A program made the translations under genes and the position numbers. From Rhizobium sp. Q54 (GTDB taxonomy: Bacteria; Pseudomonadota; Alphaproteobacteria; UBA828), in contig CAMDNF010000002.1 in assembly GCA_945902735.1 (NCBI GenBank), positions 1,400 to 65,399 of the forward strand: a stretch of DNA of 64,000 nucleotides, given 5' to 3'. Below the pieces are notes generated by a model. It had not been told where the DNA came from. It saw nothing but the letters and a program-made list of their open reading frames with translations, and did no database searches. Shown in pieces: positions 41,492-47,827 of the stretch (positions within the stretch are counted from its first letter, which is position 1; each line of letters opens with the position of its first letter).

Positions 41492-41537
41492 GTCAGGCTC
41501 ATCGAGATTTGGTGTAGGACCATACACGCACGCCGCC

Positions 41538-42938
41538 ATGGAGCCGCACAGCATCGACTTCAAAGAAGCCGCGAAGCGCGCGCTCGCCGATACCGAGCTG
41601 CAAAAATCGCTGAGCAGTTTCAAAGTCGGCTTTTCGCTGAAGCGTCTCGAAGCGATTCAAAAACTGCCGGAATTCGAAAATTTGCGCGATGAGGGCATCG
41701 CGATCAAACAACACACGCTCGCGCATCTCGATTTTTATTTGGGGCGCTTTGCCGAGAAGGTCGAAGCGGCCGGCGGCACGGTGCATTGGTGCCCGACACC
41801 CGATGATGGCCGCCGCGCGATTCTGGAAATCCTCCGCACCCATGGCGCCAAGACCGCGACCAAATCGAACTCGATGGTGGCGGAGGAATTGGGCCTCAAC
41901 GAATTCCTCGAAGCCAATGACATCGAGCCGGTCGAAACCGATCTCGGCGAATATATTATTCAACTCGCACATGAGCGGCCGAGCCACATTTTGGCGCCCG
42001 CCGTGCACAAGACCAAGGAGCAGGTCTCCGATCTTTTCTTCGAGCATCACAAGACGCGGCATTTGACCGAAGCGAGCGACATGGTGGCCGAGGCGCGGCA
42101 GTTTTTGCGCCCGCGTTATCTCGCGGCCGGCGCCGGTATTACGGGCGCGAATTTTCTGGTCGCCGAAACCGGCTCGATCGTGCTCGTGACCAATGAGGGT
42201 AATGCTGAGCTGACGCAGATTCTGCCCAAGGTTCATATTGTGCTCGCGACCGTCGAGAAGGTTGTCCCGACGCTCGAAGACGCCGCGACGCTGCTGCGGC
42301 TCCTCGCGCGCTCGGCCACGGGCCAGGAATTCGGCACCTATACGACGCTGGCGACCGGGCCGAAACAAATTGGCGATCAAGATGGGCCTGAGGCGTTTCA
42401 TGTCATTCTGCTCGACAATGGGCGCACGAAGATTCTTGGTGGCGAGTTTCGTGAGGTGCTGCGCTGTATCAAATGCGCGGCGTGCATGAACCATTGCCCG
42501 GTCTATTCCGCGGTCGGCGGCCATGCCTATGGCTGGGTCTATCCGGGGCCGATCGGCGCCGCGCTCGCGCCCAATTTGATCGGCCTCGAAGAAGCGCGCC
42601 ATTTGCCCAATGCCTCGACCTTTTGCGGGCGCTGCGAATCGGTCTGCCCGATGCGTATTCCGCTGCCCAAATTGATGCGCCAATGGCGCGAGCAGGAGCA
42701 CGAGAAAAAACTTTCGCCGCCGCGCTTTCGGCTCGGGCTCGATGCTTGGGCGTTCCTCGCCAAGCGCCCGGCGCTCTATGCTCTCGCGACCAAATTTGGC
42801 ATTGGTGTGTTGAGCGTCTTTGGCGGCGCCGGTCGCTTCAGCGCGCTGCCGCTGGCCTCGGGGTGGACCGCGACGCGCGATTTTCCGGCGCCCGAAGGCG
42901 CAACGTTCCGCGCCGCCTGGAAGAAGGCACGGGGCTGA
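41538..42938 (+). CDS. lutB: Lactate utilization protein B (Fe-S cluster-binding, DUF162/LUD + 4Fe-4S)
   Basis: …CIKCAACMNHCPVY…FCGRCESVCPM… ferredoxin motifs; ATG at 41538. Confidence 0.85.
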   Translation: MEPHSIDFKEAAKRALADTELQKSLSSFKVGFSLKRLEAIQKLPEFENLRDEGIAIKQHTLAHLDFYLGRFAEKVEAAGGTVHWCPTPDDGRRAILEILRTHGAKTATKSNSMVAEELGLNEFLEANDIEPVETDLGEYIIQLAHERPSHILAPAVHKTKEQVSDLFFEHHKTRHLTEASDMVAEARQFLRPRYLAAGAGITGANFLVAETGSIVLVTNEGNAELTQILPKVHIVLATVEKVVPTLEDAATLLRLLARSATGQEFGTYTTLATGPKQIGDQDGPEAFHVILLDNGRTKILGGEFREVLRCIKCAACMNHCPVYSAVGGHAYGWVYPGPIGAALAPNLIGLEEARHLPNASTFCGRCESVCPMRIPLPKLMRQWREQEHEKKLSPPRFRLGLDAWAFLAKRPALYALATKFGIGVLSVFGGAGRFSALPLASGWTATRDFPAPEGATFRAAWKKARG

Positions 42939-42939
42939 G

Positions 42940-44346
42940 ATGCCGGGATTGACCAGCGAGAATTTCCGCGCCAATTCGGTCAAGGCGCTGGCCAATCCGC
43001 AGCTGCAACGCGCGCTCGACAATATTCGGCGTGATTTCGTCGATTTTCGCGGCCGCGCGGTTGGTGAATTGCCGGAATATGATGAATTGAAGCGCCAGGC
43101 CATCGCGCTCAAGGATCATACGCTCGAAAACCTGGATTTCTATCTCGATGCCTTCGCGAACAATGTCGAGGCTTCGGGCGGTCATGTCCATTGGTGTCAG
43201 ACGGCGGGCGAAGCGCGCGAGGCGATCGTCGCGATTTGCAAGAAGCGCGGCGCCAAGACCATGGCCAAAGGCAAATCCATGGTCGGCGAGGAGATCGGGC
43301 TCAACGCCTATCTCGAGGCCGCCGGGTTGACCCCAATCGAAACCGATCTCGGCGAATATATCATTCAGATGCGCGGCGAAACGCCGAGCCATATCACGGC
43401 GCCCGCGATCCATCTGACCAAGGAAGATGTTGCCGATCTGTTTGCCGAGCGGCACAAGCGCCCGCGCAAGACCGAAATCCCGGCGCTGATCGCCGAGGCG
43501 CGAGAAATGTTGCGCCCGCGTTATCACGAGGCCGATATCGGCCTCACGGGCGCGAATTTTTTGATCGCAGAAACCGGCTCAAGCATGATCATCACGAACG
43601 AGGGCAATGGCGATCTGTCGCAAGTCTTGCCGCACACACACATCGTGCTGGCCAGCATCGACAAAATCGTGCCGACCATTGAGGACGCGCTAACGGTCGC
43701 GCGCATTTTGGCGCGTACCTCATCGGGCCAGGAATTCACGGTCTACAACACGTTTTCAACCGGCGCGCGCCAGCCCGGCGATTTGGACGGGCCGGAGGAA
43801 TTCCACGTCGTGTTGCTCGATAATGGTCGCAGCGCCCTGATGGGCACCAAGCAACAGGCGATGTTGCGGTGCATAAGGTGCGCGGCGTGCCTCAATCATT
43901 GCCCGGTCTATAAATCAGTCGGCGGGCACGCTTATGGCGCGGTCTATACCGGGCCGATGGGCGCGGTTCTGACGCCCACCATGGTCGGCCTCGACAAAGC
44001 GGGGCCGCTGCCCAATGCCTCGACCTTTTGCGGGCGCTGCGAATCGGTGTGCCCGATGGGCATTCCGCTGCCGGCTCTCATGCGCGATTGGCGCGAGCGC
44101 GAATTCGAACGCGCCGAGGCGCTGGCCACATTGCGAAAAGGCATCAATGCGTGGGCCTATTTGGCCAAACGCCCGATGCTCTATGCGCTCGCGACGCGGT
44201 TTGCCGCTGTCGCGCTCAAACTATTGGGCGGGCAACGTGGACGATTGGCCAGCCTGCCGCTCGGCGCGGGGTGGACCGCGACGCGTGATTTTCCGGCGCC
44301 CGAGGGCGCAACATTTCGCGCGCAATGGCGGCGCGCCAGGGGGTGA
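42940..44346 (+). CDS. Second LutB paralog (Fe-S cluster-binding lactate utilization protein B)
   Basis: Collinear with the upstream LutB and clearly similar (…CIRCAACLNHCPVY…FCGRCESVCPM…WTATRDFPAPEGATFRA…). It starts 2 nt after the first lutB stop. Confidence 0.85.
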   Translation: MPGLTSENFRANSVKALANPQLQRALDNIRRDFVDFRGRAVGELPEYDELKRQAIALKDHTLENLDFYLDAFANNVEASGGHVHWCQTAGEAREAIVAICKKRGAKTMAKGKSMVGEEIGLNAYLEAAGLTPIETDLGEYIIQMRGETPSHITAPAIHLTKEDVADLFAERHKRPRKTEIPALIAEAREMLRPRYHEADIGLTGANFLIAETGSSMIITNEGNGDLSQVLPHTHIVLASIDKIVPTIEDALTVARILARTSSGQEFTVYNTFSTGARQPGDLDGPEEFHVVLLDNGRSALMGTKQQAMLRCIRCAACLNHCPVYKSVGGHAYGAVYTGPMGAVLTPTMVGLDKAGPLPNASTFCGRCESVCPMGIPLPALMRDWREREFERAEALATLRKGINAWAYLAKRPMLYALATRFAAVALKLLGGQRGRLASLPLGAGWTATRDFPAPEGATFRAQWRRARG

Positions 44347-45017: not shown

Positions 45018-45023
45018 TGGTGT

Positions 45024-45575
45024 ATGGGGAAGCGGAAACTCAGTGATGAAGACCGCGCGCTTTGGCAGCGTATCGCGGCCAATGTCGAGCCGCTGAAGCG
45101 CGTCACCACGCGCGTCGCGACCAAACCACCGGCACCATCAATCACGCCGGCAAAACCGTCGCGCGCCCGTCTCAAGCCCGATCTCGCGCCGGCAACGCCA
45201 ATTCGTGCGCCCTCACCGCCGCCGGCGGTCGTGATCAGCGCGCCGCCCAATGCGTCCGGTATTGACCGACGCACTACGTCGAAACTCCGAAGGGGCCACA
45301 TCGCGATCGAAGGCAAGCTCGATCTGCACGGCATGACTCAGCGCGAAGCGCATGACGCGCTCAACCGCTTCATCGCCGGAAGCCAGGAGCGCGGCAAACG
45401 CTGCGTGCTGGTGGTGACGGGCGTTGGCAAATCGGGCGTCGGCGTGTTGCGCGGCGCCGTGCCACGTTGGCTCGCCGAGGCTTCTTTATGCGACGCCGTG
45501 ATGAGCTTCGCGCCGGCCGAGCCCAATCATGGCGGCCAAGGCGCGCTCTATGTGTTGCTCCGGAAGAAGCGGTAG
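45024..45575 (+). CDS. Smr-domain protein
   Basis: …LDLHGMTQREAHDALNRFIAGSQERGKRCVLVVTGVG… Smr (MutS2 C-terminal-like) domain. Confidence 0.75.
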   Translation: MGKRKLSDEDRALWQRIAANVEPLKRVTTRVATKPPAPSITPAKPSRARLKPDLAPATPIRAPSPPPAVVISAPPNASGIDRRTTSKLRRGHIAIEGKLDLHGMTQREAHDALNRFIAGSQERGKRCVLVVTGVGKSGVGVLRGAVPRWLAEASLCDAVMSFAPAEPNHGGQGALYVLLRKKR

Positions 45576-45601
45576 CGCACCAAGCCAACCAAACTCTCAG
45601 C

Positions 45602-45677
45602 CGTCATGCCCGGCCTTGAGCCGGGCATCCAGGCCAACAGAAATCCTGGATTGCCGGGTCGAGCCCGGCAATGACGA
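45602..45677. repeat. Inverted pair of REP-like units (GTCATGCCCGGC…GCCGGGCATCCAGG / CCTGGATTGCCGGG…CCCGGCAATGACG)
   Basis: Two ~32-bp units in opposite orientation, separated by ccaacagaaat. Each unit is itself a hairpin (atgcccggc-cttga-gccgggcat; ttgccggg-tcga-gcccggcaa). The units differ by compensatory substitutions. Confidence 0.55.
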
Positions 45678-45735
45678 ATGAGGGAAGGGGACGTCTACAA
45701 AATAAAATTGCTCAGAATGAAAGAAGTGTAGGGCG

Positions 45736-46347
45736 TCAACCGCCCTTAAGCTCAAGCATGATCTCATTGCGCCGCAGGAACCACGGCGTAAACGGCGGGT
45801 CGTAGCGCGCCCAGATGGGCTCTCCGACCGTTTCAAGATTTTCGCGCGCCATCGCCGCCCTGAGCTTGGCGAGTTGCTCCTCATAGAGGCTCTGCGACGA
45901 TGTGCCGGAATAACGGATCGCGGCAAAGCGCTGTGCCGGCATGGCCCGAAGCGTGATGGTGGGGTCATCCGGCTTCGGCAATGTGGAAAGCGTGAATGAA
46001 CCGGGCATGACGAACTGCATCACAATGCCGCCATCGCGGTTCTGTTGGGTGACCGGGGCGGTCATGGCGATTTTCTGTGGCGTCGTGGTCACCGGCGCGG
46101 TCATCGAAATTTCCTGCGCGCCCGAATTCTTGCCGCTGATATAGTCGAACAACCGACGGAACCCGGCATTGCTGGCAGTCTCGACGTCGCCTTGCATCAC
46201 CGTCTCGGCCGCGACATAGGGCGCGTAATCGCGCAGCTCGAAATCCTCGAACGCGCGGCTCACAGTATAGGCCGGCTGCTCATAGGCCGAGCTACAGCCC
46301 ACCAGCGCCAAGACAAACGCAAACACGATGGAGGTCCTTTTGCCCAT
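45736..46347 (-). CDS. SOUL heme-binding-family lipoprotein
   Basis: Signal peptide + lipobox (FVLALVGCSS), and SOUL/HBP-family sequence (…YEQPAYTVSRAFEDFELRDYAP…). Confidence 0.75.
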   Translation of the reverse strand: MGKRTSIVFAFVLALVGCSSAYEQPAYTVSRAFEDFELRDYAPYVAAETVMQGDVETASNAGFRRLFDYISGKNSGAQEISMTAPVTTTPQKIAMTAPVTQQNRDGGIVMQFVMPGSFTLSTLPKPDDPTITLRAMPAQRFAAIRYSGTSSQSLYEEQLAKLRAAMARENLETVGEPIWARYDPPFTPWFLRRNEIMLELKGG

Positions 46348-46460
46348 GACGGGGCTCCGATCCTATAGGCGATATAGGTGATAGGCCCTGCCCCGGCGAG
46401 CGGATCACCAAAATTTCAAAATCAGACATGTGTCGCGCGAGCTTAACCGGACAGCCGTGG

Positions 46461-46530
46461 GTCAAGCCTGGCAATGACGAAAAGCAGAACGAAGAAGAGA
46501 GGGCCGACCTCTACAAAATAAACTTGCTCA
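46461..46530. repeat. Partial REP unit + hslU 3'-end motif (second copy of the segment at 45664-45717)
   Basis: …gcctggcaatgacgaa…gagggccgacctctacaaaataaacttgctca (it encodes the hslU C-terminus KFIL*), versus 45664-45717 …gcccggcaatgacgaatgagggaaggggacgtctacaaaataaaattgctca. Confidence 0.5.
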
Positions 46531-47827
46531 AATCCGCGTTCTTGGCGAGCGCGCCGACATGCTCGCGCACATAGGCGCCATCGATCAGCGCGATGGTGCC
46601 GCTCTTCTCGCTGGCATCGAAACTGACGTCTTCCAGCAGTTTTTCCATCACGGTGTGGAGCCGTCGCGCGCCGATATTCTCGACCGAGCGATTCACCTCG
46701 GCGGCCAGGTCGGCGATCGTATCGAGCGCGTCAGCCGTGATGTCGAGCGTGACCTCCTCGGTCTTCATCAGGGCGACATATTGCTTGAGCAAACTATTCT
46801 CGGGCTCGGTCAGAATGCGCTTCAGATCGTCGCGGCTGAGCGCCTTCAGCTCCACGCGGATGGGCAGGCGCCCTTGAAGTTCCGGCAATAGGTCGGACGG
46901 CTTGGCGAGGTGAAACGCGCCCGAGGCGATGAAGAGAATATGATCGGTTCTCACCGTGCCGTGCTTGGTCGAGACCGGCGTGCCTTCGATCAGGGGCAAC
47001 AGATCGCGCTGCACGCCCTCGCGGCTAACGTCGCCGCCAATGCGATGCTCGCCGCCACGGCCGCAAATCTTGTCGATCTCATCGATGAAGACGATGCCGT
47101 GATTCTCGACCCGCTCGATCGCCGCGCGCACCACGCGCTCATTGTCCAACAGCTTGTCGCTCTCCTCGGCGATCAACAGCTCATAGGAATCGGCGACGCT
47201 GAGCTTTTTCTTTTTGGTGCGCCCGCCAAAGGCTTTGCCGAGCATATCGCCCAGATTCAGCATGCCCATCTGCGCGCCCGGCATGCCGGGCACTTCGAAG
47301 GTGGGGAGAGTCGGTGCGGTGTTATCGCCGACCTCAAGCTCGATCTCCTTTTCGGCGAACTCGCCATCGCGTAGGCGTTTCCTGAATTTCGTGCGGGTCT
47401 CGGCGCTGGCGCCCTCGCCGACCAGCACGTCAAGCACGCGCTCCTCGGCGGCAAGCTCGGCCTTGGCGGTCACTTCCCTCCGCATCGAATCGCGCTGCAT
47501 ATGGATGCCGATTTCGAGAAGGTCGCGCACGATCTGCTCAACATCGCGGCCGACATAACCAACCTCGGTGAATTTGGTCGCCTCGACCTTGATGAACGGC
47601 GCCTGGGCGAGCCGTGCGAGGCGCCGCGCGATTTCGGTTTTGCCCACGCCGGTCGGCCCGATCATCAGAATATTTTTCGGCATCACCTCTTCGCGCAATT
47701 CGGGCATGAGCTGCTGGCGGCGCCAGCGATTGCGTAGCGCGATGGCGACCGCGCGTTTGGCCTCGCGCTGGCCAACGATGAAGCGGTCGAGCTCGGAAAC
47801 GATCTCGCGGGGGCTGAATGAACTCAC
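46511..47827 (-). CDS. hslU: ATP-dependent protease ATPase subunit HslU
   Basis: …[15 protein letters not shown]…, Walker [19 protein letters not shown]-terminal …KFIL. Probable GTG start at 47827, 14 nt after the hslV stop. Confidence 0.9.

Follow-up and report, generated by a model that had tools for sequence, protein, structure and literature searches.

Within a 64-kb window of the genome of Rhizobium sp. Q54 (contig CAMDNF010000002.1), which is the whole stretch of DNA analysed here, the gene for a SOUL/HBP-family lipoprotein lies between hslU and a convergent smr gene, and the spacer between SOUL and smr holds a second, displaced copy of the 3' end of hslU joined to an intact inverted doublet of repetitive extragenic palindrome (REP) units. 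We conclude, with a probability of about 0.8, that this distal copy is the scar of an illegitimate recombination event at the octamer CTGAGCAA, not a target duplication made by a SOUL cassette. As to the route, we lean, at odds somewhat short of even, towards import from a close relative by homology-facilitated illegitimate recombination (a term that appears in PMC6382021). The components of the locus are the following, with positions counted along the window.

46511-47827, minus strand: hslU, the ATPase subunit of the HslVU protease (438 aa; stop at 46511-46513), identified from the open reading frame (ORF) list, Pfam AAA_2/AAA and gene calls on identical contigs.
46459-46530, minus strand: proximal repeat copy, made up of the hslU terminus (46511-46530), a CT-rich spacer X' (46482-46510) and half a REP unit (46459-46481).
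45736-46347, minus strand: SOUL/HBP-family lipoprotein gene (203 aa; lipobox LVGC), Pfam PF04832, E=1e-50.
45695-45714, minus strand: distal pseudo-copy of the hslU terminus, CTG AGC AAT TTT ATT TTG TAG, that is, LSNFIL*.
45678-45694, minus strand: spacer X'' (17 nt), related in alignments to X' (~30 nt) via a 13-nt indel and substitutions.
45602-45677, unstranded: intact inverted REP doublet (REPIN-like), detected as an inverted repeat with arms at 45596-45633 and 45645-45682, 11 nt apart.
45576-45601, minus strand: segment Z, 26 nt between the REP doublet and the smr stop, weakly alignable with the post-doublet sequence of the relatives L091 and L100.
45024-45575, plus strand: smr, encoding an Smr-domain protein (183 aa; Pfam Smr) and convergent on SOUL.

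In minus-strand order, the locus reads hslU, a 163-nt spacer, SOUL, a 160-nt spacer and the convergent smr, with lutC, lutB, lutB and lutA upstream of smr. The original prediction had placed and named hslU and SOUL in the same way, and it took SOUL for a cassette that had inserted into, or recombined at, the REP region just 3' of hslU and duplicated ~55-70 bp. The arrangement is not an assembly artefact, because the contigs on which it is found agree across several samples and assemblers: 14 contigs on record encode the exact SOUL protein, and all of the 10 that were fetched, which come from differing samples and assemblers, are 100% identical to the window over the parts of the region that they cover, with a single base different in the variant strain L102.

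The similarity between the two copies resides in two blocks. Block 1, GGGTCGAGCCCGGCAATGACGAA (45656-45678), matches 46459-46481 at 21/23 positions, and block 2, GACGTCTACAAAATAAAATTGCTCA (45690-45714), matches 46506-46530 at 23/25 positions. The blocks are collinear at both sites, and the sequence between them is 11 nt long in the distal copy and 24 nt in the proximal one, a 13-nt indel. When up to 3 mismatches are allowed, each block occurs in the 64-kb window only within 45656-45714 and 46459-46530, and 0/100 shuffles produced a match, so that the predicted second copy of the hslU end beyond SOUL is real. The divergence between the copies is about 8% in the blocks and higher in the spacer. 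The last codons of HslU, CTG/TTG AGC AAG TTT ATT TTG TAG (LSKFIL*), thus have a distal counterpart that would read LSNFIL*, and nothing hslU-like precedes it, just as had been claimed. A further element of the proximal site is not kept in the distal copy:

46498-46512, minus strand: weak terminator-like hairpin AGAGG-TCGGC-CCTCT with a T-rich tail, overlapping the hslU stop (consensus scan and fold).

Could these similarities be ordinary REP distribution, that is, unrelated REP units located by chance close to AT-rich sequence? Block 1 does fall within a REP unit and is repetitive by nature, but block 2 (23/25) is not REP, is unique to the two sites, was matched in none of the 100 shuffles, is collinear with block 1 and reproduces the hslU stop context; this explanation is refuted and retains next to no probability. 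We also considered that the pseudo-tail might be translated via SOUL readthrough or frameshift, as a mimic of the HslU C-terminus, and rejected this candidate: SOUL is exported as a lipoprotein, the pseudo-tail lies in the -1 frame and recoding finds no support. The distal segment is probably devoid of coding function, and an Rfam search of 45400-46700 at E<=1 gave no match.

Relatives of the locus were gathered by protein searches with SOUL, Smr and HslU followed by genomic-context look-ups, and the graded series that resulted is listed here with protein identities to the window.

L100 and L180: SOUL 95%, HslU 97%; SOUL 9 nt from smr; hslU-SOUL spacer of 353 nt in L100.
L103: HslU 96%; no SOUL; order hslU, Fic, MazE, about 190 nt, smr.
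L091: SOUL 83%, HslU 94%; SOUL 6 nt from smr; hslU-SOUL spacer of 278 nt.
L095, L098 and L099: SOUL 70-71%; SOUL 6-9 nt from smr.
L181: more distant; no SOUL; a MazE-Fic module.

In six contigs that represent five SOUL-bearing relative lineages, SOUL has the same orientation as in the window and is separated from smr by 6-9 nt, compared with 160 nt in the window, and the distal copy is present in none of the six. The promoter region, with its upstream motif, is the same as in the window in those SOUL-bearing relatives for which enough upstream sequence is available. Therefore, SOUL adjoined smr before these lineages split, and given that SOUL was already in place, the novelty in the window lineage is the ~160 nt between SOUL and smr. 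The flanking genes give the tree ((window, L100) 93-94%, L103 85-88%, L091 78-87%, L095 about 77%), and the identity of the SOUL DNA follows the order of the neighbouring genes (92.6% for L100 and 80.6% for L091), a pattern of divergence that fits vertical descent.

Had SOUL inserted at the repeat, relatives without SOUL and with a single copy of the repeat were to be expected, as the original prediction proposed. What we found is that the SOUL-bearing relatives have the proximal copy only, and that the close relatives that lack SOUL, L103 and L181, carry the MazE-Fic module and no REP doublet; a search of the L103 MazE-smr spacer for remnants of the SOUL promoter or gene found none. The bracketed 0.8 kb contains SOUL and its promoter region only, with no mobility gene and no recognisable element ends. 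Among more distant Alphaproteobacteria, we surveyed 80 hslU loci among the matches listed, with HslU at most 76% identical, and SOUL is absent at all of them. In 3 of these 80 listed loci, hslU is directly convergent on smr, with gaps of 16-75 nt, and in others the position between hslU and smr is taken by an XRE-type regulator, an MFS transporter, an FAA hydrolase, or a DUF1402, PAS or GNAT gene. Over deep evolutionary time, then, the hslU|smr junction is variable and SOUL belongs to its accessory cargo. Thus, of the original prediction, two parts are supported, namely a duplication linked to recombination, with homologous copies and the hslU 3' end joined to a REP doublet, and the accessory status of SOUL at depth, given its absence from the 80 distant loci and from L103 and L181; the interpretation of the repeats as the scar of SOUL insertion is not, in view of the six relative contigs that have SOUL without the distal copy.

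The insertion model can be updated to accommodate a joint at CTGAGCAA. A SOUL-less ancestor with the order hslU, tail, doublet, smr would have imported the promoter and SOUL from a relative through a homologous anchor in hslU and an illegitimate joint at CTGAGCAA, such that the distal copy would be the original hslU end, displaced, and the proximal copy the imported one. The same anatomy then follows from a single joint. SOUL is indeed patchy (absent from L103, L181 and the 80 distant loci listed, and decayed in the contig P0248 described below), hslU faces smr directly in some loci, and the conservation of the coding tail and the REP, but not of the spacer, looks like the divergence of orthologues between two lineages. 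However, six contigs from five lineages hold SOUL 6-9 nt from smr without the distal copy and with a common promoter motif where it is covered; SOUL is no more similar to its homologues than the flanks are (92.6% for L100, 80.6% for L091), with no sign of recent import; and an earlier precise loss of SOUL would be needed, followed by its re-gain at the same place and in the same orientation. We regard this version as improbable.

The origin of the REP doublet is more informative. Folded as DNA, the doublet reaches -29.9 kcal/mol (z = -5.6) and forms two REP hairpins with ~7-bp stems inside a larger structure, so that the complete inverted REP pair said to be attached to the distal copy is indeed there; the proximal copy holds a half REP unit only, and its fold is not significant. 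In L091, an intact doublet lies just downstream of hslU (L091 4767-4845) and aligns with the distal doublet of the window at 84.8% over 79 nt by BLAST. Because this doublet is directly 3' of hslU, the layout of hslU tail, spacer and doublet is native to the clade. Across the proximal half-REP and spacer X', the window and L100 differ by 1 mismatch in about 95 nt; L100 has ~110 extra nt and a degenerate second REP unit downstream, and a further 190 nt have been deleted from the window. Since L100 shares the degraded proximal state, this state is ancestral to both lineages, and because it predates their split, the intact doublet cannot have been copied from the proximal site afterwards. The two hslU ends share the derived Phe codon TTT, which is TTC in L091, L103 and L155, and the distal end keeps the CTG codon, as does L091. 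Given the shared TTT codon and the related spacers, the source was an earlier state of the same genome or a very close relative. A simpler account of the proximal half-REP, in which it resulted from a 51-nt internal deletion and segment Z was homologous to the bases that follow it, was dropped after L100 and L180 showed the degenerate second unit ~110 nt further on and the 190-nt deletion of the window became apparent. Lying between two convergent genes, SOUL and smr, the REP doublet could, we suggest, function as a terminator or a hairpin barrier.

Movement of the doublet itself by a REP-associated tyrosine transposase (RAYT), from the site 3' of hslU to the SOUL-smr junction, with about 36 nt of flank carried along by imprecise excision, would account for the intact and strongly folding doublet at the distal site. 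The same explanation draws on the REP-like units found 3' of hslU in the distant L155. However, the left boundary of the duplicated segment coincides with the target microhomology CTGAGCAA and not with a REP end, flank was carried on one side only, and a further family member was found neither in the 64-kb window nor in the flanks (~10 kb) of five relatives. The probability that we assign to such transposition is very low. With respect to REP units in the broader group, L155 (HslU 72% identical, terminus LSRFIL*) has several REP-like units (GTCATTGCCGGGCTTGAC..., GGATGCGCGGGTCAAGCCCGCGCATGACC) directly 3' of hslU at L155 1240-1450, and REP elements thus recur at this position across lineages. 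No further copies of the REP family of the doublet were detected within the window or in the ~10-kb flanks of the five relatives.

The distal segment begins at a point where the terminus of hslU and the antisense 3' end of smr have eight bases in common. Three elements make up this junction.

45708-45715, minus strand: junction octamer CTGAGCAA, a microhomology that the hslU terminus (gat CTG AGC AAg) shares with the 3' end of smr in antisense, as seen by direct comparison of the sequences.
45716-45735, minus strand: remnant resembling the antisense smr 3' end (CTA stop ... CTTCTT), from local alignment against shuffles, p about 0.03-0.05.
45730-45746, minus strand: terminator-like hairpin AGGGCG-GTTGA-CGCCCT over the SOUL stop, followed by ACACTTCTTT, from a consensus scan, with a terminator function presumed.

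The antisense smr end that holds the octamer is ttcCTGAGCAAcac in L103 and CTGAGCAG in L091 and L095; the L103 smr end reads exactly ...cCTGAGCAAcac, and the L091 hslU end reads gatCTGAGCAAg. Proceeding along the minus strand 3' of the SOUL stop, the order in the window is CGCC CTACACTTCTTTCATT, then CTGAGCAA, TTTTATTTTGTAG, the 17-nt spacer, the REP doublet, 26 nt and the antisense smr end, which starts CTA CCG CTT CTT CCG GAG CAA. The gap on the SOUL side, TGACGC-CCTA, equals the L100 gap TGACGC(GAAGG)CCTA minus 5 nt. The resemblance, together with its occurrence at the expected position, weakly suggests that the ~20-nt remnant derives from the 3' end of an smr gene.

Traces of recombination are also found in smr. 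At the DNA level, the window and L100 are 94.0% identical in hslU, 92.6% in SOUL and 93.9% in lutC, with the flanks overall at 93-97%, but only 77% identical in smr, and the block of low identity has sharp edges, from the SOUL stop to nt ~50 of smr. In a five-way alignment, a recombination breakpoint is located at smr nt ~48-57 (about 45071-45080 of the window). On its upstream side, 7 informative sites against 2, counted by hand from the alignment, place the window with L100; downstream of it, identities summed from per-window counts are 87% between the window and L103, which is the normal distance, and 71% between L100 and L103, which is aberrant. The smr of L100 is 71-75% identical to those of all other lineages. 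The first 45 nt of smr, common to the window and L100, match L103 at 34/45 and 33/45 positions, where ~39/45 would be expected; this distance modestly favours an odd ancestral smr allele, the 3' part of which was replaced in the window lineage (likelihood ratio about 7, binomial, our own calculation from the alignment counts). The mosaic smr is direct evidence of recombination at this locus. Separately from the breakpoint, the L100 smr (L100 5622-6191, corresponding to window 45024-45575) carries a 27-nt in-frame tandem duplication (ANVVPLKRAANIEPLKR).

These observations could be united by the import that we tentatively favour. DNA of a closely related lineage would have entered the cell, from a donor that had lost SOUL, so that its hslU tail, spacer and REP doublet abutted smr. 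A homologous crossover near the 5' end of smr, at about nt 48-57, would have been combined with an illegitimate joint at CTGAGCAA that connected the donor hslU tail to the recipient smr 3' end, such that donor sequence would have taken the place of the recipient smr beyond about codon 18, with some 20 nt of the former smr end remaining as a stub beside SOUL. The joint, the stub, the smr block and the intact state of the doublet would all be covered by a single event of this kind. That a donor had lost SOUL is plausible, because SOUL is absent in L103 and L181 and is split into two ORFs (87 and 68 aa) in the contig P0248 (ENA ERZ1305449), the HslU of which is 96% identical to that of the window; the SOUL of this contig is probably a pseudogene, and given its split state, SOUL appears to be dispensable and to decay repeatedly in the clade. 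The L103 lineage co-occurs with the window organism in the same samples. Both the existence of a donor and the direction of transfer are what we infer from this combination of features.

Several observations weigh against such an import. No donor-like layout, that is, hslU tail, X'', doublet and smr, was found in any collection searched, and a metagenome scan for the pattern 'hslU stop, 8-38 nt, TCGTCATTGCC' returned 73 matches, among which the only real hslU end was that of the distant L155, again with no donor-like layout. The smr of the window is at the normal vertical distance from that of L103 (about 87%), so that the import requires an additional, earlier event that gave rise to an odd allele in the common ancestor. 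Indeed, taken alone, the smr data point to replacement in L100, not in the window, as the simplest reading; our first view, that the window smr was the foreign allele, on account of its 77% identity to L100, was given up when the addition of L103 identified L100 as the aberrant lineage, which weakened the import model. With an smr end of the window/L103 type the microhomology has no mismatch, but it reaches 7/9 with the L100-type end that is assumed for the recipient. The smr-end remnant is only marginally significant (p about 0.03-0.05), and its bases pair with the SOUL stop region in the terminator-like hairpin, which could explain the sequence without common ancestry.

An alternative route is duplication within the genome, which would have taken place in a common ancestor of the window and L100 lineages while the proximal doublet was still intact. 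By slipped or template-switch replication between the CTGAGCAA octamers, which lie some 1 kb from each other in hslU and antisense smr, a segment made up of the hslU tail, spacer, doublet and about 26 nt would have been copied to the smr end, either as a templated insertion or through a 1.1-kb tandem duplication from which the second SOUL was then deleted; subsequently, the proximal doublet would have decayed, and L100 would have lost the distal copy when a foreign smr replaced its own. The microhomology is perfect over all 8 nt of the octamer when the hslU end is compared with an smr end of the window/L103 type; the window smr looks vertical when compared with L103, with L100 as the outlier, and the replacement in L100, which is indicated anyway, would erase the distal copy there. 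The copies share the derived TTT codon and have related spacers, and their divergence (about 8% within the blocks) would fit an origin somewhat before the window-L100 split. A contig of a third lineage, P0129, has a 121-nt gap after smr, which hints that expanded SOUL-smr spacers are not confined to the window. However, this scenario takes ordered steps (duplication, deletion or a double template switch, and doublet decay), all before the window-L100 split, and homologous recombination usually removes a 1.1-kb tandem duplication before it can be fixed by a second, illegitimate deletion. Furthermore, the SOUL-smr gap of L100 (TGACGCGAAGGCCTA) resembles the remnant gap of the window (TGACGCCCTA), which is unexpected if the L100 junction is foreign, and no relative with the distal copy was seen. 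We consider duplication within the genome somewhat less probable than import, and the data do not separate the two.

Beyond the origin of the scar, the junction between hslU and smr turns over fast in this clade: SOUL is present, lost or decayed, MazE-Fic has been gained and smr alleles have been replaced. The MazE-Fic module, an antitoxin with a Fic/Doc toxin, is located at this junction in L103 (6750-7400), L095 (29-678), L181 (1322-1972) and L099 (1-240); it stands alongside SOUL in L095 and without SOUL in L103 and L181, and the Fic gene of L103 overlaps the hslU stop by 11 nt. The P0129 contig (ENA ERZ1305449) has the order lutA-lutB-lutB-lutC-smr, with a partial convergent gene beyond the 121-nt gap, where the contig ends; it may represent a second lineage with an expanded post-smr spacer, possibly broken at a repeat. 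Many distant Alphaproteobacteria have at hslU|smr a conserved XRE-type helix-turn-helix (HTH) gene, of about 120 aa (MTPFG..R.LR...AYLSALEHG.RG.P), which lies on the smr strand between hslU and smr in L002, L018, L024, L028, L032, L033 and L038; L100 instead has an HTH_3 gene between hisB and hslV.

On the other side of smr, relatives keep a GC-rich hairpin (GGGGCC...GGCCCC) after lutC (L100 6192-6375, L103 5961-6000, L091 6177-6216); in the window (45018-45023), it was lost by a ~34-nt deletion that left a lutC-smr gap of 6 nt. After lutC, L100 also has an extra insert of about 145 nt with two TCTCGATGA...TCATCGAGA inverted repeats, which looks like a miniature inverted-repeat transposable element (MITE). 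Further upstream, at ~41500-44346 on the plus strand of the window, two tandem LutB-like genes encode proteins of 466 and 468 aa between lutA (CCG domain) and lutC; each has LUD and 4Fe-4S domains, their DNA is ~70% identical, and the arrangement is kept in all close relatives.

The SOUL protein itself matches PF04832 over profile positions 1-172 of 173 with 172.5 bits (cutoff 27), a full-length family match, and heme binding is predicted for it from family membership. Within the gene, an internal direct repeat at 46048-46116 (30 nt, 80% identical, 39 nt apart) encodes the peptide MTAPVT...MTAPVT twice. The region upstream of SOUL contains two motifs of potential regulatory interest, and the exact form of the first is found in relatives.

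46382-46407, minus strand: promoter-like motif of the ECF11 (RpoE-ChrR) type, TGATCC-N16-CCTA, 35 nt upstream of the SOUL ATG, with one mismatch to TGATCC-N16-CGTA.
46362-46390, minus strand: three CCTAT (ATAGG) pentamers, a cluster found nowhere else in the window, which overlap the -10 element and leader in the promoter region of SOUL.
L091 4940-4965, L095 798-823, L099 266-291 and L180 about 203-228: exact ECF11-type motif.

The consensus of RpoE-ChrR (ECF11) promoters is TGATCC-N16-CGTA (PMC5507510, PMC4336711). The exact motif occurs 34-37 nt upstream of the SOUL ATG in L091-L094, L095-L097 and L099, and also upstream of SOUL in L180; among the 179 loci compared, it is found upstream of SOUL only. 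The window (CCTA) and L100 (CGTT) deviate from it by one mismatch each, and one-mismatch matches are not rarer in the window than expected by chance (4 found vs 3.3 expected). A sigma-70 promoter scan gave no match. In Chlamydomonas, SOUL-domain genes are induced by singlet oxygen (PMC4067076), and our literature search found no report of a bacterial SOUL gene tied to a ChrR regulon. Conservation of the motif and its spacing suggests, as a lead and not as a result, that the SOUL lipoprotein is part of a regulon for photo-oxidative or singlet-oxygen stress. The cluster of TATAGG/GATAGG half-sites that had been noted upstream of SOUL is real as well: it is the single one in the window, and 2/300 Markov simulations gave such a cluster. 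The triple CCTAT is partly conserved in L100/L180 and not in L091/L095, and a role as an operator is conjectural.

In itself, the feature is a small non-coding recombination relic, the product of a known kind of event and part of ordinary genome micro-evolution. With little reach beyond the locus, it illustrates that gene-end fragments and REP doublets can preserve traces of past illegitimate recombination, and that repeats that bracket a gene are no insertion footprint without a check of relatives. The lead of wider reach is the putative, conserved RpoE-ChrR-type promoter before SOUL; if it is true, it would tie a bacterial SOUL lipoprotein to photo-oxidative stress, in parallel with the singlet-oxygen induction of the Chlamydomonas SOUL genes. 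Speculatively, and with the odds against it, the locus may have preserved a natural trace, open to dating, of homology-facilitated illegitimate recombination among uncultivated lineages of Alphaproteobacteria that occur together, with hslU|smr as a recurrent exchange point at which SOUL, MazE-Fic and smr alleles move via microhomology joints by REP hairpins; separately, and equally doubtfully, the SOUL lipoproteins of the clade may belong to an RpoE-ChrR singlet-oxygen regulon.

Homology-facilitated illegitimate recombination has been described in the naturally transformable Acinetobacter baylyi, Streptococcus pneumoniae and Pseudomonas stutzeri. The locus resembles it in having a presumed homologous crossover at one end (smr nt ~50) and a joint at a short microhomology, CTGAGCAA, at the other, and in a product that has gained foreign or displaced DNA and would retain a stub of the gene that was replaced. 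It differs in that the event is reconstructed here from comparative sequence, in an organism known only as a metagenome-assembled genome, in that no donor was found, and in that duplication within the genome yields the same product. With microhomology-mediated (RecA-independent) duplication or template switching, the locus shares an 8-nt direct repeat at two source points about 1 kb apart and a copied segment that ends beside a hairpin-forming REP doublet, which could stall replication; however, a simple tandem duplication would not give this outcome without a further deletion or template switch, and the source requires an intact doublet that is gone from the proximal site today.

Compared with REP/REPIN elements, doublets that are mobilised by RAYT transposases, the doublet has the same ~31-nt units (GTCAT-stem-loop-stem-ATCCAGG), inverted arrangement, strong fold and position between convergent genes, but there is one intact doublet in 64 kb, and the duplication runs past the REP into unique hslU coding sequence. 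A target-site duplication around a gene cassette likewise has direct repeats that bracket a single accessory gene; the repeats here are diverged and, at 59-72 nt, exceed target-site duplications by far in length, no transposase or integrase is encoded in the cassette, and relatives that bear the cassette lack the second repeat. The region upstream of SOUL, finally, is like RpoE-ChrR (ECF11) promoters in that the motif and its spacing are identical in four relative lineages, at 34-37 nt from the SOUL ATG in the three that were measured, and it differs from them in that the window has CCTA for CGTA.

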